From assembly GCA_964351865.1 (NCBI GenBank), contig CAYGPJ010000014.1:35556-99555 (forward strand): a stretch of DNA of 64,000 bases, given 5' to 3'. How positions within the stretch are numbered: position 1 is the stretch's first letter; every line of letters starts with the position of its first letter. Made by a program: the position numbers and the translations under genes. The DNA is from an uncultured Blastochloridaceae bacterium. Its GTDB lineage: Bacteria > Verrucomicrobiota > Verrucomicrobiia > Methylacidiphilales > JBCBYL01. Of this stretch, positions 2,895 to 64,000 are shown one piece after another. The notes below the pieces were generated by a model, which saw only the letters and a program-made list of their open reading frames with translations, did no database searches and was not told the DNA's origin.

Positions 2895-3017
2895 AGTCGT
2901 CTAATTCGTTGACTGCCATTCGAGTCAATCCCGATCCCGACTGGGTCCGGTGATCTATATTCAATCTGCGGTTGGCTCGGCATAAGTCATATTCAAACTA
3001 AGATGCAAATTCTGTCA

Positions 3018-3068
3018 AGATCGTCACCTGACCCCTTTCTCCAAAGATCGTCACCTGACCCCTTTCTC
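3018..3068 (+). repeat. Perfect 25-bp tandem direct repeat (2 copies, 'aagatcgtcacctgacccctttctc') immediately upstream of transposase remnant; 19-bp inverted copy at 2855-2873
   Basis: Read directly: 3018-3042 and 3044-3068 are identical; the reverse complement of the core occurs at 2855-2873. Confidence 0.85.
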
Positions 3069-3075
3069 GACCCAT

Positions 3076-3831
3076 CTGTATCTTGAAACGCCGCAGGGTA
3101 ATCTCAGCCAAGCGATGAGCTGGCTGCAGACAACGTTCACCATCCGTTACAATCGAAAGAAAAAGCGTGTAGGTCATTTGTTTCAAGGACGCTACAAGGC
3201 TCAATTGGTCGAGGACGATCACTACGGGCAGGAATTGATCGAATACATTCATTTGAATCCAATTCGCAAACGAAAGAACGGTCGGGTGATTCAGTTCGGC
3301 GACTGGGAGCAATTGATAAACTACCCATGGAGCAGTCATTTCCAGTATAGTCGTAGCGAGGAAGATTCACGAGTGCCCGTGAACGTTAAATATTTAAAGT
3401 TCTGGGGAAAAGATGAAACAACCGGACGTGCGGCATACCGCAAAAGCTTGAGGAAGCTGGTGACCAATGACGTTCCAGTGGATCCATTTACTGAAATTCA
3501 GGAAAGTCTGGCGATGGGGAGTAAAGATTTCCTCAAGAAAGCAAAAGAGATGGTGGCCGCCAAATCAGGCAAAACCGAAAAAAAGAAAAAGAAGCGCTGG
3601 CAGGCGGTAGATCGTGAAGCGGAAATTAGAAAACGACTCAATAAAGAACGGATAAACGGGTGATGATCTGGGCATTGGTTAGCCTGGCAGGAGTTTCAGG
3701 GGTGAAGTTGGCAAGTGAATTTGGGTATGGGGACGGCAGTGGAATTTACCGTGTGGTGCAGCGATTGAATAAAAAGGCCCAGCACGATGAAGTGCTGTAT
3801 AAGAAGTTGGAAGCGCTGAAAAATCAGTCAA
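3076..3831 (+). pseudogene. Degenerate COG1943 (RayT / IS200-like Y1) transposase-like gene with C-terminal DnaA_C-like HTH; N-terminally truncated and frameshifted near 3660
   Basis: Frame 1 (to 3663) encodes 'LETPQGNLSQAMSWLQTTFTIRYNRKKKRVGHLFQGRYKAQLVEDDHYGQELIEYIHLNPIRK', the conserved core of the RayT/IS200-like family. The HUH N-terminal part is missing. After a frame change at about 3660 the sequence continues as 'LASEFGYGDGSGIYRVVQRLNKKAQHDEVLYKKLEAL', which resembles a DnaA C-terminal-type HTH. The antisense ORF 2998-3339 is spurious. Confidence 0.6.
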
Positions 3832-3920
3832 GAGTCAAGCCACGACCCCGAAGAAGAGTCAAGCCACGACCCCGAAGAGACCCCGAAGAGAGGTGTAAGA
3901 GTCAAGCCACGACCCCGAAG
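3829..3920 (+). repeat. Three tandem copies of a 20-mer 'gtcaagccacgaccccgaag' (REP-like); fourth copy at 5526-5550
   Basis: Copies at 3832-3851, 3858-3877 and 3901-3920. A variant 'gtcaagcctcgaccccg' sits at 5531-5547. The ORF 3660-3950 that 'encodes' RVKPRPRR repeats is an artefact of this DNA repeat. Confidence 0.8.
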
Positions 3921-3995
3921 AGGTGTAAAGGTATAAAAGTGGTAAGGTAGGAAAGTGGCAGCTCAATGCTAGCTCTCCCGTCATTTACCAATCAG

Positions 3996-5457: not shown

Positions 5458-5745
5458 GTTATTTTACAGGGGAAAAGAAATAGGGGTGGAACAAAAATAG
5501 GTCTGTCCACTAAGTTTCTCAAATGCGTCAAGAGTCAAGCCTCGACCCCGTTGATAAGAGATACAAGATTAGTTTCAAAACAGGGTTCTGACATGAATGG
5601 CATTCTATACACTTCCGGAACTGTCATACGGAATCGATTTGGTTCAGCAAATTCTATGAATTTGAGTGAAAATGAACGACGAAATGCAATTTCATCCTAC
5701 AGAGCTGACGCCAGTGGCGATCGTTACCTATCAGGGAAACCGCTT

Positions 5746-7479: not shown

Positions 7480-8005
7480 CGGGAGATAAATAATAAAGGA
7501 GCTGGTTCAACGGGATCAACTCTCGCGCGAAGGCTACTTCAAATGTTTTCGCGAGCGAGCGGCTCGATCCTCATCCATCAAAGAATATGATGGCGGTGTG
7601 ACCTGCCAGGTGAATCCTAATGTTTATAAAGGGGGGGGTGCCTAAAGTTTTTGCAGGATGAGATGGGCTCCATTGTGAATCACAGCACAATGATTGCGTT
7701 GGGTCTGTATTCCGGCTTGGCTATTCGGTTGGTATGAAAAAATCACCTCAAGGGCGATGCTGCTTCATGTTAACGGATCTGGGATCACCGGGTTAGGTGG
7801 GCGAGGCTCCCGCAAAAAATGTGACCATCAGACAAGTCAACTTACTTCATGGCATGAGCTCGCCAGAACCGTCAGGTAGGTCGGCGGTTTGAACGCAACA
7901 TAAAGAAGGTGTCTTTGGTGTATTTCGGGTCCGCAACACACCATTCATTTTAATTAATGATGTGAAATATTTGACAGGTAACGAATTGGCATGACGTTTA
8001 CCTGT

Positions 8006-8500
8006 ATGAAATCAAAAAAATTATTACCAATTATATTAGGATTCGTGGCGGTAGCATTCATCAGTTTACCGGCGGCCAACGCTGAACATCACGAGAAAGA
8101 CATCGTCGATACAGCGGTAGCTGCCGGATCATTTAAAACGCTGGCAGCGGCACTGGATGCGGGTGGATTGATCGATGTCTTGAAAGGGGAAGGACCGTTT
8201 ACCGTATTCGCTCCGACCGATGAAGCCTTCGCCAAGTTGCCGGAAGGAACGGTGGAAACTCTGCTCAAGCCTGAAAATAAGGATAAGTTGGTCTCAATCC
8301 TCACTTATCATGTCGTTCCCGGCAAAGTGATGGCGGCGGATGTCGTTAAACTGACCGAAGCGACCACGGTTCAAGGAACGAGTGTGGATATCAAAGTCAC
8401 AGATGGGACCGTCATGGTGGATGGAGCGAAGGTAATCAAACCCGATATAGCTGCAACTAATGGTGTCATTCATGTCATCGACACGGTGATCATGCCATAA
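8006..8500 (+). CDS. Fasciclin (FAS1) domain protein, secreted
   Basis: Signal peptide [26 protein letters not shown]; '[11 protein letters not shown]', 'LTYHVV', 'NGVIHVID' FAS1 motifs. Confidence 0.9.
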
Positions 8501-8597: not shown

Positions 8598-8985
8598 GAG
8601 AGTTGCGTCCAAGTACTTGCCTCTAGAGCGTTTCCGAAATATGTTTTAACATGTAGGGCGAGATTGCATCTCGCCAACTTCCATCCCGGCAAGATGCAAG
8701 CTTTAGGCTGCGCCTAAACTAAACAAGTTAGAAAGTTATTTTGGTCGCGCTATCGCGCTGGGTTTTCTTGCCCTACATCTATTTTCCTCTGTTGATCGTG
8801 TGAGAACTTAATTCGGAAAAGCTCTAGTAGTTCGTTGCACGTCTAAAGACGGGTAGGGCGGTTTGTCTCAAACCGCTTTGGGATACGATACCAAATATGA
8901 TATAGAACCCGAAACGGAAACCAGCGCCTTGAGACAAGACGCCCTACCATACCCGTCATCCTATGCGCAACGAACTACTAGTACT
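8598..8985. repeat. Mosaic of non-coding hairpin repeats (families A, C, E)
   Basis: 8650-8675 'catgtagggcgagattgcatctcgcc' (also at 21578-21610). 8688-8779 is family C (also 40883-40998 rc and 63667-63794). 8822-8981 is a family A element: 17-bp terminal IR 'ctagtagttcgttgcac', enclosing a 20-bp inner IR 'ggtagggcg..ttgtctcaa / ttgagacaagacgccctacc'. Confidence 0.8.
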
Positions 8986-9048
8986 TCACAAGTCGCAATT
9001 GGTACGTTCACAGAGTTGCGCTGAAGACGGTTCCCGATATGCTACAGC

Positions 9049-18892: not shown

Positions 18893-18996
18893 GTATTACG
18901 TGGTGAGATCACCAAGCATACAGTCATGCAACTGTCTGAACGGAGTAACAGCTTTGCCTCGATGGTTGCGATTGTGGATCAGTCGTCTGAATAATC

Positions 18997-19347
18997 TAGT
19001 AGCAGTTCATTGCACATACTTTGACGAATAAGGTGGGGCGTCTTGTCCCAAGGCGCCGGGTTCTACCTCCCGACCACACAGGGTGTCGGCATCGGCACGT
19101 TGGGGATCCCGCGGCCGCGCATACATATCAACATAAGAGGTATAAAACGATATTTAGAGGTCGTATTTCAACAGAGAGCTGAGGTAGTGCGCTTTGTCCT
19201 CAAAGCGCTGGGTGGTCACTACGGGAAAGCGGTTTGGTCCCGACACCCTGCGTGGTCGGGAGCCCTACCTTTGTCATATTCCATATGTTGATGCATAAGC
19301 GCGGCCGCGTGACCCTACCTCTCACTACAGATGCAATGAACTACTTG
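18997..19347. repeat. Family A mosaic repeat element (about 350 bp, non-coding)
   Basis: Terminal IRs 'ctagtagcagttcattgcac' (18997-19016) and 'tgcaatgaactact' (19332-19345). The interior holds 'ggggcgtcttgtcccaaggcgcc' hairpin modules shared with 26266-26620 and 27764-27903. Confidence 0.8.
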
Positions 19348-21235: not shown

Positions 21236-21290
21236 GCCCGCATTTAGAGCATTTTCGAATGGTGTTCTAACACTGATTCAGGTGGCCCAC

Positions 21291-21612
21291 GATAGGGGAC
21301 GGAGTAATATTTTCCGTGCAAGTGGTATAGGTCCTATGAAAGCAGGGTGGCAGGAAAAAATTACTCCGTCCCCTATCGTTCAGCGATTTGCTGAATTAAT
21401 ACTGAATGTCGCAGATATGCGATTTTATCGGAGCCAGATCTTCAGAGAAAAGACTTTCGCGTATTTCGCGGTTAATTTATTTCTGGAAAAATGGCTCAGT
21501 TCTTTTAACGGGGATAAGAGGGCAGGACTTATAGCGTTTCCGAATTAAGTTCTCACACGGTGACCTGATTAAAATACATGTAGAGCAAGATTGCATCTCG
21601 CCCTACATGTTT
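21291..21612. repeat. Family D and family E repeat elements
   Basis: 18-bp perfect IR 'gataggggacggagtaat…attactccgtcccctatc' (21291-21377). 21536-21612 'agcgtttccgaattaagttctcacac…catgtagagcaagattgcatctcgccctacatg' matches 8627-8675 and rc of 8785-8815. The region 21360-21450 recurs inverted at 63850-63968. ORF 21234-21548 is spurious. Confidence 0.8.
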
Positions 21613-21681
21613 GAACATCATTCGAAAACGCTCTCAATCTTCAATGTATCACGTGATACATTGAAGATTGGCGCGGTGATA

Positions 21682-26265: not shown

Positions 26266-26620
26266 ATGAGTAGTTCATTCGGGCTGTAGAGAGGGGTAGG
26301 GTTCCTCGGTCGCGGTATCCCCAAGCGCCGATCCCGACACCATGTGTGAGCGGAGGTCGAATCGGCGCCTTGGGACCCGTCGCCGCTAAGGCTATGCCGA
26401 GGCAAGCAAGACGCCCTACCTAGGCGTTTCGCAATTTATTTGCCGCACGGTTTGGTAATGCGTCGGTAAGAAATCCTACGGATATTCTCACCCTACACGG
26501 GGAAAATGTAGGACGAGAATGTCCGGCTGTTGCCGGACTTCTTGTCAAACGCCTTGATCATTGCGGCAGATTAATTAGATACCGCTCTAATCGTCAAAGT
26601 ATGTGCAATGGACTACTAGA
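26266..26620. repeat. Family A mosaic repeat element
   Basis: Termini 'gagtagttcattc' / 'gcaatggactactag'; inner 'gggtagggttcc…ggcgccttgggacccg…caagacgccctacc' hairpins. Confidence 0.8.
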
Positions 26621-26677: not shown

Positions 26678-27742
26678 ATGCTGGTTCGCCTGATCCTAGA
26701 TAATTTCCGCTGCCATCCGCAGTTGGATCTGCGTGATCTGGGTCAGTGCAATGTGCTGACCGGTGCCAATGGGCGGGGCAAGACTTCATTGCTGGAGGCG
26801 GTTTTTCTGATTTCGCGCTGTCGTTCCTTCCGCACTCACCGCACCAAAGAATGTGCCGGTTGGGGTCGCAGTTCATTTGGAGTGGCCGGACGCATGGCAC
26901 AGGAAGTGAACGGCGCGGTACGGCTCAAATATGAATGGACGCGTGCCGGACGGCAGCTCAGCACGGATCAGGAATCCAACCTGAAACTCAAAGCGTTTTG
27001 GGGGTTGCTGCAGGCGGTGGCGATTACGAATCAGGACCGTCAACTGGTTACCGAAAGTGGACGCTATCGGCGCAACTGGATTGATAGTCTGATCGCAGCC
27101 ACTGATCACGAGTATCTGGAGCTTTCCCAGAAAGCATTGCTGTTGCAGCGACAGAAGAGTGCCCTGTTGAAAAGTGAAAAGACGGATCGCACGCTCTGGA
27201 AGATTTTGACGGATCAGATGCGCCCGATTTGCTCGCAAATGGTGGCGGCACGCGACGTCATGACGGAGCGAATGGCGCCAGAGATCGAAGCTCACTACCG
27301 CGAACTGACCGGGCAACAGGAGCAAGTGGGCTTTGCCTGCAACGGGGAGACGGCGAAACGCTTGAGTCGCGACGAAGCAGAACTTTGGCAAGCCGAGCAG
27401 AAGAGTCGGAATTGTGAACTGGGGCCGCATCGGGATGATTGGGATCTGACCTTGCAGAATAAACCGTTGCGGCATTTTGGTTCGGAAGGCCAGCAGAAAT
27501 CAGCGGCATTGGCCATGCGGCTGGCGGAGTTGAAACTGGATACCACCACCAATCCTGGTCGCACGGTGGTGCTGATCGATGATGCGCTGATTGAACTGGA
27601 TGCCGGACGCCGTGAGCGCTTCTGGCAACAGGTGCCGGCCGGGGTGCAGATTCTCTACGCCACGACGGACGCCAGTCGCGATAAAGTCTTTCGGGAATTC
27701 GACCGAGTGTTACAAGTCGAGCCCGGCGAGGTTCGATTGTAG
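26678..27742 (+). CDS. recF: DNA replication and repair protein RecF
   Basis: Walker A 'GANGRGKTSLLEA', signature 'GPHRDD', ABC-like 'SEGQQK', Walker B 'LIDD'. Confidence 0.9.
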   Translation: MLVRLILDNFRCHPQLDLRDLGQCNVLTGANGRGKTSLLEAVFLISRCRSFRTHRTKECAGWGRSSFGVAGRMAQEVNGAVRLKYEWTRAGRQLSTDQESNLKLKAFWGLLQAVAITNQDRQLVTESGRYRRNWIDSLIAATDHEYLELSQKALLLQRQKSALLKSEKTDRTLWKILTDQMRPICSQMVAARDVMTERMAPEIEAHYRELTGQQEQVGFACNGETAKRLSRDEAELWQAEQKSRNCELGPHRDDWDLTLQNKPLRHFGSEGQQKSAALAMRLAELKLDTTTNPGRTVVLIDDALIELDAGRRERFWQQVPAGVQILYATTDASRDKVFREFDRVLQVEPGEVRL

Positions 27743-27763
27743 CAGCGGCTGCCTTCAGCGATT

Positions 27764-27995
27764 ACTAGTAGTTCATTGGATGTGTAGTGAGGGGTAGGGC
27801 GTGTTGTCCCCAACGCGCCGAGGCGTAGCTTGGTGAACCCGGCACCTTGGGACAAGACGCCCTACCTTAATCCTCAAAGGTTTTGTAATGCACTAATAGT
27901 AGACCGTGCAAGACGATATGACGGGAATTGCAGGCCGAGATTGGATCTTGTCGCATTCACCAATCGCTTTCACAACCGGCAAGATACAATCTTAC
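27764..27995. repeat. Family A element (27764-27903) followed by family B element (27896-27995; second copy 40839-40885)
   Basis: 'actagtagttcattgg…gggtagggcgtgttgtcccc…ccttgggacaagacgccctacc…aatgcactaatagtag'; then 'tagtagaccgtgcaagacgatatgacgggaattgcaggccgaga', shared with 40839-40882. Confidence 0.8.
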
Positions 27996-28020
27996 CCTAC
28001 AGTCGGAAAAACTGATGGAA

Positions 28021-40834: not shown

Positions 40835-40998
40835 TAGTAGACCGTGCAACATGATATGACAGGAACTGTAGGCCGAGAAAACCCAGCGCGATAGCGCGGC
40901 CAAAAAAATAATTTCTAACTTGTTTAGTTTAGGCGTAGCCTAAAGCTTGCATCTCGGCTCCTTCTAAACTGTCGAGATGCAATCTCGACCTACATTTT
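40835..40998. repeat. Family B + family C repeat elements (reverse orientation)
   Basis: 'tagtagaccgtgcaacatgatatgacaggaactgtaggccgaga' followed by the reverse complement of family C 'gcaagctttaggc…cgcgctatcgcgctggg'. Confidence 0.8.
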
Positions 40999-41029: not shown

Positions 41030-42055
41030 CTAGATCTGCCAGCCTTGCAGGATGCGCATGTAGTTGGTGCGCTCGAAGGCGGCGGGATCGGGGCAACGCT
41101 GCATGCTCATACTGCCGCGCAATTCATCTAAAGAAGAAAACTCGTGCTGCTGCATCCAGTCGATCAACCCCGCCTTCAGCACCGCCAGTTGCTCGGGCCC
41201 GTGCTTTAAGAGGGAGGACACTAATTGCACCCCGCTGGCACCGACCATCAGGCCTTTAACCAGATCTTCCGTGGTATGCACCCCGCCGGAGAGAATCAGG
41301 TCGGGCTTCACCTTGCCATACAAAGCCGCGATCCAGCGCAGTCGCATCGGCAGTTCGGATGAATCCGACAGTTCGAGGTGCGGTATCGTCTCCATTTCTT
41401 CAATGTCAATGTCCGGCTGGTAGAATCGGTTGAAGAGAATGATGCCATCTGCACCGGCGGCCTCCAGTTTAGCGGTCAGATAAGGCAAGGAGCTGTAGAA
41501 GGGCGAGAGCTTCACCGCCAGCGGCATTTGCACCCGACTGCGCACATTCAGCACTACATCGACTAATCGAGCTTCCACCTCGCTGCCGGATTCCTGAGTA
41601 TCCGTGGCAATGTGATAAAAATTCAGTTCCAGTGCATCCGCGCCGGCCGTTTCGATGCTTTTAGCGTAGCGAGCCCAACCCCCATTTGTCACCCCGTTGA
41701 GCGAGGCGATCACCGGCAGCTTGGTGACCTGTTTGATTTCCTGAATCTTCGCCAGATAATCTTCCGGGCCGATATTGAAGTCCTCGTAACGGGGGAAATA
41801 CGTCAGGGCTTCCCCGAAGATGTCATCATGGGCCTCGGTGTGATATTCCGTGGCGTCCTGATCCATGGTGATCTGTTCTTCAAACAACGAGTGCAGCGTA
41901 ATCGCACCCGCGCCTGCCTGTTCCAGTTTACGGACCCGGTCGGACTGATTTGCCAGCGGCGAAGCGCCTACAATCAGCGGGGAGTTGAGTTTCAACCCGA
42001 GATAGCTGGTGCTCAGATCGGGCGTTGTTAGCGGGCTTAGCGTGGGAGTTTCCAT
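41030..42055 (-). CDS. Dihydroorotate dehydrogenase-like (DHOD/DHPD family) flavoprotein
   Basis: TIM-barrel DHOD-family motifs 'LKLNSPLIVGASP', 'LELNFYHI', 'LSGGV'; start codon overlaps the PFOR stop. Confidence 0.75.
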   Translation of the reverse strand: METPTLSPLTTPDLSTSYLGLKLNSPLIVGASPLANQSDRVRKLEQAGAGAITLHSLFEEQITMDQDATEYHTEAHDDIFGEALTYFPRYEDFNIGPEDYLAKIQEIKQVTKLPVIASLNGVTNGGWARYAKSIETAGADALELNFYHIATDTQESGSEVEARLVDVVLNVRSRVQMPLAVKLSPFYSSLPYLTAKLEAAGADGIILFNRFYQPDIDIEEMETIPHLELSDSSELPMRLRWIAALYGKVKPDLILSGGVHTTEDLVKGLMVGASGVQLVSSLLKHGPEQLAVLKAGLIDWMQQHEFSSLDELRGSMSMQRCPDPAAFERTNYMRILQGWQI

Positions 42056-61975: not shown

Positions 61976-63655
61976 ATGAAGAAGGTTGACTCCTCAGTTC
62001 CCGCTTGGACGCAAGAAATTGCGACCTTGTATGAGAGCGGGGCATACAATCAGTTTATCCTGCACGGTAACCTGAATGATTCTTTCCTGGTCTCCGATCC
62101 GGGCGGGCAGAAACTTGGCGACATCTATTCGCTGATCAATCGCCAATTACTCAGCGGATTCGATGTCGTTCTGACTTACGATTTGGGGCGTGGCATATTA
62201 GCTGAGAAAGGTCGCGAAGCTTTTTCTCAATGGCCTTCACACGACGCAGAAAATTTGCAGACACGTAAACCCAGGGACGCCGTGGTCACCCTGACCCATT
62301 ACTTCCGGTATGTCGCCAATCTGAGAAATATCAGCGGATCATCCAAAGCGCCCAAAGTTGCCGCATTGATCAAAGGAGCCGAGTGGATGGCTCCCGCGGT
62401 CCAGAGCGGACTCAATTACGAACTCAATGCGACCGCATTGATGATGAAGGAATGGAGTCAGGACCCGTTACTGCTTTCGCATCATCTCGCCACGTTTCTG
62501 TTTTCGGAAAACATGAATGATTTGCACCCCTTACTGGCTAATAATCCGCGGGCGGCACGGGTTAAGGTTGATCTGCCGGATGCCGCACAGTGGAAGCGCT
62601 TTTTCTCTTTCGCGGCCGCATCATTTAAGGAAACCCTGCCCGAGACGGACGGAACAAGTTGGCAAGGCAGCGATCAATTTCTAGGGGCCAGCTGTCATGC
62701 GGTCTGGCAGTTATTGCAGCGACGGGCTTATGAAAAAGAACCGCTGAAAATTAGTGATGCCGTCAGCCTGAAAAAATCACTGGTAGAAAAAGAGTGCCAG
62801 GGGTTGATTGAATTTACCGAGTCGGATCGGACACTCGATGATATTGCGGGCCAGGAGGCGATTAAAAATCTGCTGCGACAGGATATCGCCTTGTTGCATC
62901 AGGGGGACACCAAGGCATTGCCGATGGGGTATTTGCTGTGCGGTCCGGTGGGAACCGGAAAAACGTATTTCGTGGAATGTCTGGCTGGTGAGGCCGGCAT
63001 TCCGGTGGTGACTATTAAAAATTTCCGCGATAAGTGGGTGGGGTCGAGTGAAGGGAATCTCGAGAAAATTTTCCGCCTGCTGCATGCGCTGGAACGCTGT
63101 TTTGTCTTCATCGATGAGGCCGACCAATCCCTTGGGAAACGCGACAGTGGTAGCAGCGATTCCGGATTGTCCGGTCGAATCTATTCCATGTTCGCCAAAG
63201 AGATGAGTCAGGTGCGAAATCGCGGTAAAATCATTTGGCTGTTGGCTTCGAGCCGGCCGGACCTGATTGAGGTGGATCTGAAGCGCCCGGGTCGGGTAGA
63301 TGTGAAAATACCGTTATTGCCCGCGCATACCCCCGCGGGAGTGGCTGGATTATTATATGCGCTTTGCCGTAAACAGGGGATCGAGCTGTCCGAAGCACAG
63401 ATCCTGGAGCATCAGGAAATCTTGCCGGAGTGGCTGACGCCAGGCAGTGCAGAAGCTTTAGCCGTCAAACTCTATCGGAACATTAAAGCCGACGGGTTAA
63501 ATCCGTTGGAAGCCTTATCCTCTGCTTTAAATGGTTACCAGAACCCGGTGCCGCGCGATGTGATGGAGTTTCAGATCGATCTCGCCGTCAGGGAATCGTC
63601 GGACATGAGTTTCGTGCCCGAGGCCTTTCAAAAGCCGCAAAGTCAGAGCGTTTAA
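61976..63655 (+). CDS. Classic-clade AAA+ ATPase (FtsH/Vps4/CDC48-type single AAA cassette) with novel about 300-aa N-terminal domain
   Basis: Walker A 'CGPVGTGKT', Walker B 'VFIDEAD', SRH 'SSRPDLIEVDLKRPGRVD'. Confidence 0.85.
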   Translation: MKKVDSSVPAWTQEIATLYESGAYNQFILHGNLNDSFLVSDPGGQKLGDIYSLINRQLLSGFDVVLTYDLGRGILAEKGREAFSQWPSHDAENLQTRKPRDAVVTLTHYFRYVANLRNISGSSKAPKVAALIKGAEWMAPAVQSGLNYELNATALMMKEWSQDPLLLSHHLATFLFSENMNDLHPLLANNPRAARVKVDLPDAAQWKRFFSFAAASFKETLPETDGTSWQGSDQFLGASCHAVWQLLQRRAYEKEPLKISDAVSLKKSLVEKECQGLIEFTESDRTLDDIAGQEAIKNLLRQDIALLHQGDTKALPMGYLLCGPVGTGKTYFVECLAGEAGIPVVTIKNFRDKWVGSSEGNLEKIFRLLHALERCFVFIDEADQSLGKRDSGSSDSGLSGRIYSMFAKEMSQVRNRGKIIWLLASSRPDLIEVDLKRPGRVDVKIPLLPAHTPAGVAGLLYALCRKQGIELSEAQILEHQEILPEWLTPGSAEALAVKLYRNIKADGLNPLEALSSALNGYQNPVPRDVMEFQIDLAVRESSDMSFVPEAFQKPQSQSV

Positions 63656-63666
63656 TCGGGGACTCT

Positions 63667-63968
63667 AGGGCAAGATAGCATCTTGCCGGAATGATCATTG
63701 GCGAGATGCAAGCTTTAGGCTACGCCTAAACTAAACGAGTTAGAAATCATTGGTATTCTCCGCGCTATCGCGCTGGGTTTTCTCGCCCTACATGACCATC
63801 TCCTGTTGGCGAAACATGTTGAGCGAATCGTATGATAGCTGACGCATCCAATAGATGAAGCGCCGCAACTCCGAAAGGATTCGCGAGAGATCTCCGATAA
63901 AATCGCGAGTCTGCGAAATGCTGCATCGACTTACCAAAGCGCTGAACGCTAGGGGACGGAGTAATTTT
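63667..63968. repeat. Family C (63667-63794) and inverted family D (63850-63968) repeat elements
   Basis: 'ggcaagatagcatcttgcc…gcgagatgcaagctttaggctacgcctaaactaaacgagttagaaa…cgcgctatcgcgctgggttttctcgccctacat'; 'tccgataaaatcgcgagtctgcg…cgctgaacgctaggggacggagtaa' is the reverse complement of 21360-21440. Confidence 0.8.
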
Positions 63969-64000
63969 TTCCTACCATCCCGTTTTCAAAAGGCCAATAC

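Follow-up and report, generated by a model that had tools for sequence, protein, structure and literature searches.

A probable GTAG-REP/REPIN-class repeat with a structured insert in its second hairpin, from an uncultured member of the Verrucomicrobiota

Repetitive extragenic palindromes (REPs) tagged with GTAG are small hairpins with a 6-13 bp stem, a 2-3 nt loop and an unpaired GTAG at one end (PMC3733652). The 24 published families show complementary stem variants and form head-to-head dimers with outward-facing tags downstream of open reading frames (ORFs), with several families per genome; some dimers are embedded in longer palindromes, and members are on record in the PVC (Planctomycetes-Verrucomicrobia-Chlamydiae) superphylum (Opitutus terrae) and in Chloroflexi (PMC3733652). 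REPs can also receive other DNA. In Pseudomonas putida, the IS110-family insertion sequences (ISs) ISPpu9 and ISPpu10 have a fixed insertion site within REPs (PMC1525189), and the non-coding ssr9 module moves alone into REPs via the ISPpu9 transposase (PMC12288879). Here, we describe family C, a repeat present at three loci in a 64-kb stretch of an uncultured Verrucomicrobiota genome (contig CAYGPJ010000014.1, positions 35,556 to 99,555; hereafter, the window). We put the probability at about 70% that family C belongs to the GTAG-REP/REPIN class (REPIN, REP doublet forming a hairpin) as a non-autonomous and non-coding element with a structured insert in its second hairpin, that it is mobilised by a REP-associated tyrosine transposase (RAYT) and that it carries the insert as cargo.

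The three copies, in orientations +, - and +, can be aligned over their full length and measure 126, 128 and 129 nt, their limits being the points where the alignment and the inverted termini stop. From 5' to 3', the element consists of T, the tag GTAG, a first hairpin (REP1), a 12-nt spacer, a second and inverted hairpin (REP2) that contains a core segment, CTAC, and A:

8652-8777, + strand: family C copy 1, 126 nt, TGTAG...CTACA; REP1 8653-8675, spacer 8676-8687, REP2 5' half 8688-8699, core 8700-8765, REP2 3' half and CTAC 8766-8776
40867-40994, - strand: family C copy 2, 128 nt; REP1 40993-40971, spacer 40970-40959, REP2 5' half 40958-40947, core 40946-40879, REP2 3' half and CTAC 40878-40868
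63664-63792, + strand: family C copy 3, 129 nt, with a degenerate left tag CTAG (starts TCTAG); REP1 63665-63687, spacer 63688-63699, REP2 5' half 63700-63711, core 63712-63780, REP2 3' half and CTAC 63781-63791

A preliminary description of this DNA had reported a repeat at three loci and in both orientations, which alignment, string counts and profile searches all bear out. Two invariant core strings, the 23-mer CGCGCTATCGCGCTGGGTTTTCT and the 29-mer GCAAGCTTTAGGCTRCGCCTAAACTAAAC, occur exactly three times each in the window (0 expected from 100 dinucleotide-preserving shuffles), and an nhmmer profile of the core alignment finds these three window sites only (E = 1e-29 to 1e-30). The loci had thus been placed correctly, and it is their limits that have shifted: copy 1 starts at 8652 rather than 8688, its left hairpin (8653-8675) having been missed; copy 2 starts at 40994 and ends at 40867 rather than 40883; and copy 3 spans 63664-63792. 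Two Logan contigs of run ERR3534966 break inside the element, one (L001) within the core of copy 3 at window position 63726 and the other (L057) directly after REP1 of copy 2. Such breaks are expected of repeated DNA in short-read assembly and are not proof of copies beyond the three.

REP1 is composed of an 8-bp stem, a 3-nt loop and the 8-bp return stem (GGCGAGAT-TGC-ATCTCGCC). The 5' part of REP2 reads GGCRAGAT-GCA-A, comprising the 5' arm, the loop and one base that opens the 3' arm, while the rest of that arm (TCTYGCC) is found only after the core and is followed by CTAC. The core, a family-specific segment of 66-69 nt, therefore lies inside REP2 between the loop and the 3' stem arm and splits the REP2 stem, at the identical position in all three copies. 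It is 96-98% identical between copies and can be divided into a 35-nt module 1, with the hairpin TTTAGGC-TRC-GCCTAAA (7 bp) and a weaker CTAA...TTAG pairing; an AT-rich middle stretch of 11-14 nt that varies among copies; and an invariant 20-nt module 2 with the small hairpin GCGC-TATC-GCGC. Conservation differs between the parts of the element, as seen in the pairwise identities of the copies:

REP1 with its tag: 18-22 of 24 positions
spacer: 1-4 of 12 positions, which is chance level
core module 1: 33-34 of 35 positions
core module 2: 20 of 20 positions

Taken together, the two core modules agree at 53-54 of 55 positions. The left tag is GTAG in copies 1 and 2 and CTAG, a decayed GTAG, in copy 3; the right end is CTAC in all three. 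At the left core junction, the T of the REP consensus is replaced by G in every copy, and a CT dinucleotide is present at both candidate junctions, leaving the junction boundaries ambiguous. A target-site duplication is absent from all three copies (flanks AACA/TCTA, AAAA/GTTC and ACTC/TGAC).

This anatomy also revises the "stacked palindromes" by which the repeat had initially been characterised. The first of them, ggcaagat-gc-atcttgcc, retains its 8-bp stem and has a loop of 3 nt; the second corresponds to the 7-bp hairpin of core module 1; and the third, cgcgctatcgcg, had been called perfect and is in fact a 4-bp stem with a 4-nt loop. What had been overlooked are the inverted REP bounds, GTAG...CTAC, and the 66-69 nt insert that holds the two internal palindromes.

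Pairing within each REP unit is supported by thermodynamic and comparative evidence. Folded as single-stranded DNA, all three copies are far more stable on either strand than shuffled sequences (z = -3.2 to -5.3; z = -4.3 for the fold of copy 1). When each REP is modelled as pairing with itself, 78 of 78 cells of the three-sequence alignment are Watson-Crick pairs, and double-sided changes occur at four pairs, two in REP1 and two in the split REP2 stem. The three split stems (GGCAAGA/TCTTGCC, GCCGAGA/TCTCGGC and GGCGAGA/TCTCGCC) are all perfectly complementary. When the partner columns are slid as a control, pairing falls to 27-50% and the number of compensatory pairs to 0. The two core hairpins, being invariant in all copies, carry no covariation evidence either way.

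The REP hairpin of family C is found well beyond the window. The pattern GTAGGNCRAGATTGNATCTYGNC occurs at at least 42 loci in species-representative genomes, compared to a rough chance estimate, derived from the collection size, of ~4. Among the matches listed are Chloroflexota, Planctomycetota (Pirellulaceae), Ignavibacteria, Gammaproteobacteria, Verrucomicrobiota and others, including Salinisphaeraceae, Akkermansiaceae and the complete genome of Oceaniferula spumae. A looser census of the listed loci yields 78 units, 73 of which carry GTAG, and the two free stem pairs covary across these units (GC 28, AT 35 and TA 14 at one; AT 54 and GC 22 at the other). Many units among the listed loci form head-to-head heterodimers ending in CTAC. 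We further noted that this REP type, GTAG-GNCRAGAT-TGN-ATCTYGNC (loci L011-L052, at least five phyla), is usually paired with a lineage-specific second hairpin that ends in CTAC, and that two loci hold tandem REP arrays (L028, period 50; L037, period 44-46).

In two of these genomes the hairpin adjoins a RAYT-like gene. A phmmer search with the Escherichia coli RayT as query against all ORFs of the collected loci and the window found two ORFs, both next to REP matches (loci L021 and L011). The gene in the Ignavibacteria locus L021 (2510-3163, - strand) matches Pfam Y1_Tnp above the curated cut-off (E = 5e-5) and NCBIfam NF047646, the REP-associated tyrosine transposase, at E = 9e-19, below the 80-bit cut-off; upstream of it lie three REPs in the order hairpin-CTAC, and downstream five in the order GTAG-hairpin. 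Its counterpart in the Salinisphaeraceae locus L011 matches NF047646 at E = 1e-14, is apparently frameshifted and is flanked by the same REP type. In alignment with RayT, both ORFs show the HUH and the Y..NP tyrosine motifs. For RAYT-like genes, present at one or a few per genome, two REP-flanked cases in ~330 kb that had been sampled for the hairpin only are far above chance. The link to a RayT-like enzyme that the preliminary description had suggested thus fits the terminal GTAG-tagged hairpins and the flanks of RAYT-like genes in two other genomes; a RAYT beside any of the copies in the window was not seen.

[quoted passage not shown] Such an element would account for the clear 12-13 nt inverted repeats with their TG...CA ends, for the size of 126-129 nt, for the intergenic site and for the strong predicted fold. 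However, the apparent TIR is the GTAG tag plus the outer stem of the REP hairpin, and this hairpin is also found on its own and, in other phyla, beside Y1 transposase genes. In view of this, of the missing target-site duplications and of the failure to find any IS with such ends in the window, we regard a MITE as highly improbable.

The window itself is rich in related hairpins. It carries ~10 units of the family C REP type, all intergenic and 3' of genes, and four GTAG-tagged perfect hairpins, against a mean of 0.22 in simulated sequences. Units outside family C include the following:

5678-5700, - strand: degenerate single REP unit, GTAG-GATGAAAT-TGC-ATTTCGTC
21579-21607: single REP unit tagged at both ends, TGTAG-AGCAAGAT-TGC-ATCTCGCC-CTACA
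27929-28001: plain REP pair with outward tags, no core and a 25-nt spacer; left unit TGCAG-GCCGAGAT-TGG-ATCTTGTC, right unit GGCAAGAT-ACA-ATCTTACC-CTACA

The double-tagged unit lies in the middle of X, a palindromic element of 105 bp (21530-21634) whose arms (AGAGCGTTTCCGAA...) also flank copy 1 at 8624-8651 and 8779-8826. The centre of X is accordingly occupied by one double-tagged REP at 21.5 kb and by the whole of family C copy 1 at 8.6 kb; the former might have arisen by deletion or excision between two direct repeats, TCTCGCC and TCTTGCC. X-related sequence is also found at 21245-21272. A second GTAG-tagged palindromic family (GTAGGGCGKYTTGTCYC ... GRGACAAGACGCCCTAC) is present at 8853-8947 and 27794-27865, nested in elements with CTAGTAGTTC... 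terminal inverted repeats (8819-8986 and 27767-27903), and arms related to it lie at 18995-19063, 19300-19345, 26269-26314 and 26588-26618. At least two GTAG-type families thus coexist in the genome. The mosaics of the repeat with other repeat families, likened earlier to bacterial interspersed mosaic elements (BIMEs), find support here, in that the neighbouring families are real.

Comparison with relatives indicates that these repeats are lineage-specific additions. The RecF encoded in the window has an NCBI/Logan counterpart of 100% identity, and its next relatives (88-82% identity) are named as Verrucomicrobiota metagenome-assembled genomes. Three repeat-bearing intergenic sites could be compared: two are short and repeat-free in a relative, and the third has unrelated sequence of similar length. 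In the syntenic relative GCA_038748025.1 (locus L004), the spacer upstream of engB measures 83 bp, compared to 564 bp in the window, and the interval between the aligned RecF and SASA blocks 140 bp, compared to 399 bp; the gap between these two genes is 14 bp and repeat-free there and 279 bp in the window, where it holds the plain pair at 27929-28001. The L004 locus ends one gene before the site of copy 2, the only family C site compared with relatives; in an 80% relative (locus L056) the orthologous site is occupied by unrelated sequence (334 bp) and lacks family C. The site comparisons thus argue for lineage-specific additions to intergenic DNA rather than conserved regulatory sequence. In an 88% relative (GCA_039027415.1, locus L008), the RecF-SASA site is 55 bp long and starts with one REP unit (GTAGGTCGAGATTGAATCTCGAC, then AGTTTTAAA) that is close to REP1 and the start of the spacer of copy 2. 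The TAG stop codon of RecF in L008 falls within the GTAG tag of a REP unit (L008 4150-4215), and RecF of the window likewise has a ...TGTAG end, with a small GC hairpin after it (27735-27770).

Family C occupies sites 3' of ORFs, between co-directional or convergent genes, in agreement with the placement on record for REPs (PMC3733652). Copy 1 lies 152 nt past the stop of a fasciclin gene (7991-8500, + strand), copy 2 lies 36 nt past the stop of a DHO_dh-like gene (41030-42055, - strand), and copy 3 begins 9 nt past the stop of an AAA ATPase gene (61976-63655, + strand). The preliminary description had proposed a non-coding, dispersed repeat, for which constant association with one neighbouring gene would have told otherwise; the neighbourhoods are unrelated (fasciclin/cyclase; the DHO-dehydrogenase-like gene with a 182-aa ORF; AAA ATPase), in keeping with that proposal. 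All three copies share the orientation of the upstream gene, a coincidence with a chance probability of P = 0.125-0.25, so that a role in the 3' untranslated region (3'-UTR) is suggested, not significantly.

This placement bears on the possibility that family C is an RNA or DNA signal with a host function (a 3'-UTR stabiliser, a terminator, a small RNA, or an array bound by integration host factor (IHF), gyrase or a nucleoid protein) and that the core is its functional part. The position of every copy 9-152 nt past a stop codon, in the orientation of the upstream gene, would suit such a signal, as would the two near-invariant core modules on either side of a variable AT-rich stretch, and in E. 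coli, REPs have known roles in stabilising the mRNA upstream and as binding sites of IHF and gyrase (PMC3733652). Against it, Rfam 15 gives no match at gathering score across the window and none at E <= 5 in the region of copy 1 (8600-8830), and no sigma-70-type promoter or terminator is conserved at a site common to the three copies. The IHF consensus (WATCAANNNNTTR) is absent from both strands of all three copies even with one mismatch allowed, at odds with the IHF site envisaged initially. The invariance of the core hairpins deprives this explanation of covariation evidence, the shared orientation is readily obtained by chance, and the site of copy 2 lacks the element in the 80% relative. 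We therefore consider a host signal very unlikely. A terminator-like call at copy 2 proved to be REP1 read on the opposite strand.

We favour instead a mobile REP doublet. The two inverted hairpins with their GTAG tags outside constitute a head-to-head dimer, each GTAG-plus-hairpin unit of which may fold in single-stranded DNA, by analogy with characterised REP systems. A RAYT (an HUH/Y1 transposase) with its gene elsewhere in the genome would recognise the folded units and then cut and re-join them, a process that leaves no target-site duplication, and the core would travel as cargo, probably passive and not a functional module. That a RAYT mobilises the element in this particular genome we infer from the other systems. 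Compared with published REPs by description, family C fits the known GTAG-REP/REPIN class, and the core insert is its one unusual feature.

Several observations weigh against this reading. RNAalifold predicts a doublet-wide REP1:REP2 hairpin, and the minimum-energy folds of copies 1 and 2 use it, yet it is mismatched exactly at the covarying positions. The folding check proposed earlier yields folds that beat the shuffles, together with a consensus hairpin that fails where the copies vary, and the two units therefore look independent rather than like one folded doublet. Within the window, no RAYT adjoins any family C copy and none is flanked by the REP type of family C. A core 20-mer is absent from 185,579 species-representative genomes and from viral contigs, and the lone metagenome-contig match of a 21-mer from the 3' hairpin region of the core (including 1 nt of the REP2 3' arm) is unrelated and due to chance; likewise, the core has no match in plasmids (distant mode), and nhmmer finds none in ~50 collected loci beyond the window copies. 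Copy counts refer to the 64-kb window, and the searchable genome collections do not include the source genome. The insert of 66-69 nt exceeds the REP loops on record (up to ~27 bp, PMC3733652). Moreover, the spacer is always 12 nt long and at chance identity beside a near-identical core (~97%), which simple duplication of the complete unit with subsequent neutral decay does not explain. Finally, the one Y1 gene of the window is not the likely mobiliser of family C, its family using GGGGTCA...TTGACA TIRs of unrelated sequence.

This gene and the repeats around it are located as follows:

~3070-3663, + strand: 5'-truncated Y1 (RAYT/TIRYT-like) transposase gene, NCBIfam NF047646
2851-2880, 3012-3042 and 3044-3068: GGGGTCAGGTGACGAT.TTGACAG repeats
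3830-3930 (three times) and 5530-5563 (once): GTCAAGCCACGACCCC repeats

The match to NF047646 (E = 1.2e-8; 35 bits, compared to a cut-off of 80) covers positions 59-143 of the 146-position profile. Its full-length homologues are ~318 aa long, contain Pfam Y1_Tnp and are labelled RayT by the Joint Genome Institute (JGI); the nearest of them (P0122, locus L054, 3001-3960) has perfect 25-bp TIRs beginning GGGGTCAA. Repeats of the GGGGTCAG...TTGACAG type surround the remnant at 2851-2880 and 3012-3068, and insertion or duplication of the surrounding repeats seems to have destroyed its 5' end. No transposase turned up when 29 ORFs of the window were scanned against Pfam. The truncated gene nevertheless shows that the Y1 enzyme class occurs in this genome.

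The contrast between spacer and core admits three possible origins. The core may have inserted three times, at the same position, into different resident REP pairs; REP2 and the core may move as one unit that lands 12 nt from a resident REP; or selection or gene conversion may act on the stems and the core only. The first of these leads to an alternative in which the core would itself be mobile, a minimal non-coding module directed at REP hairpins, inserted independently three times at the same nucleotide of the 3' arm, with the REP pair as its landing site and with a REP-specific recombinase encoded elsewhere, for example of the IS110 type, as its mover. The alternative accommodates the identities of 53-54 of 55 in the core, compared to 1-4 of 12 in the spacer and 18-22 of 24 in REP1, as well as split stems that differ by copy yet stay complementary, as if three different resident REPs had been hit. 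The resemblance of REP1 and the spacer start of copy 2 to an older REP lineage in L008 and the CT at both candidate junctions point in the same direction, and ISPpu9/ISPpu10 (PMC1525189) and ssr9 (PMC12288879) provide a precedent. If true, it would explain the ~97% core, the unrelated host spacer and the covarying split stems at once, and the core would be a far smaller counterpart of ssr9/ISPpu9, in Verrucomicrobiota. However, no copy of the core was found free of a REP, no parent IS or recombinase was found among the ORFs examined, and the core has no terminal repeats. In addition, the sole core-free pair in the window has a 25-nt, not a 12-nt, spacer, and the junction G shared by all three copies in place of the consensus T fits a single ancestral event better. 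Three copies also give little statistical power. A core that seeks out REPs, and with it the proposed recombinase, is in our view unlikely.

Further features of the window lie outside family C. Relative to GCA_038748025.1, it has extra genes for a glutamine cyclotransferase and a second DEAD helicase (18.1-20.9 kb), a SulP sulfate permease (23.5-26.7 kb), a class II aldolase (31.2-32.7 kb) and an FkbM methyltransferase (35.1-35.9 kb); small repeats border the first two of these blocks (18995-19345; 26269-26618). Another repeat family comprises a hairpin with 27-nt perfect arms (21289-21379), and a 109-nt stretch at 21325-21433 is 80% complementary to 63892-64000, directly downstream of copy 3. 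GATC is in excess (447 in 64 kb, compared to ~250 expected from length), and the GC skew is positive in all 4-kb bins (0.008 to 0.16). The cyanobacterial HIP1 hypothesis was rejected, as GCGATCGC occurs only three times.

With the reading as a mobile REP doublet, a puzzling "stacked palindrome" repeat is placed in the RAYT-dependent GTAG-REP/REPIN class, to which family C adds an example from an uncultured member of the Verrucomicrobiota. One REP hairpin type is common to at least five phyla, in two of which it adjoins RAYT-like genes. A REP pair, furthermore, can carry, or be invaded by, a conserved segment of 66-69 nt while its split stem stays complementary, which bears on the cargo tolerance of RAYT substrates and on the assembly of REP mosaics. 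Both the cross-phylum hairpin and the insert leave current understanding unchanged.

Family C shares features with several described systems. As in the REPs and BIMEs of E. coli that are associated with RayT (TnpA-REP; PMC3333891, PMC3479197, PMC8266576), the recognised unit would be GTAG plus a hairpin, REPs alternate with other motifs in mosaics, and the transposase class is HUH/Y1; the hairpin sequence and the phylum differ, and the IHF-site linker that characterises BIME-1 (RIP/RIB) is absent. The REPINs of Pseudomonas fluorescens (Bertels & Rainey 2011, PMC3116915; PMC3337134) likewise consist of two inverted REPs around a less conserved spacer, are non-autonomous, have been proposed to be mobilised by a RAYT and cause no target-site duplication. 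Unlike in REPINs, REP1 and REP2 of family C are each self-complementary and are mutually mismatched at variable positions, the doublet-wide hairpin does not appear to be what is conserved, and a cargo insert is present. The ISPpu9/ISPpu10/ssr9 system resembles family C in placing extra DNA at one fixed position of a REP hairpin and in having a small non-coding module without a transposase gene; the family C core differs from it in comprising only 66-69 nt, and neither ends similar to A/B boxes nor an IS110 transposase were seen. The Y1 gene at 3070-3663 and its GGGGTCAG repeats resemble the TIRYT/TIRtron type (GGGGWSAS TIRs, PMC3733652), and these repeats bear no sequence relation to family C. 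The closest likeness is to the GTAG-tagged REPs (Di Nocera, De Gregorio & Rocco 2013, PMC3733652; Nunvar et al. 2010, PMC2817692). Family C departs from them in that a conserved segment of 66-69 nt, with two small hairpins, interrupts its second unit and in that its spacer is fixed at 12 nt while being unrelated in sequence. It corresponds to them in tag, stem, loop, outward-facing dimers and genomic site, and copy 1, lying within the X element, recalls those of their dimers that are embedded in longer palindromes.

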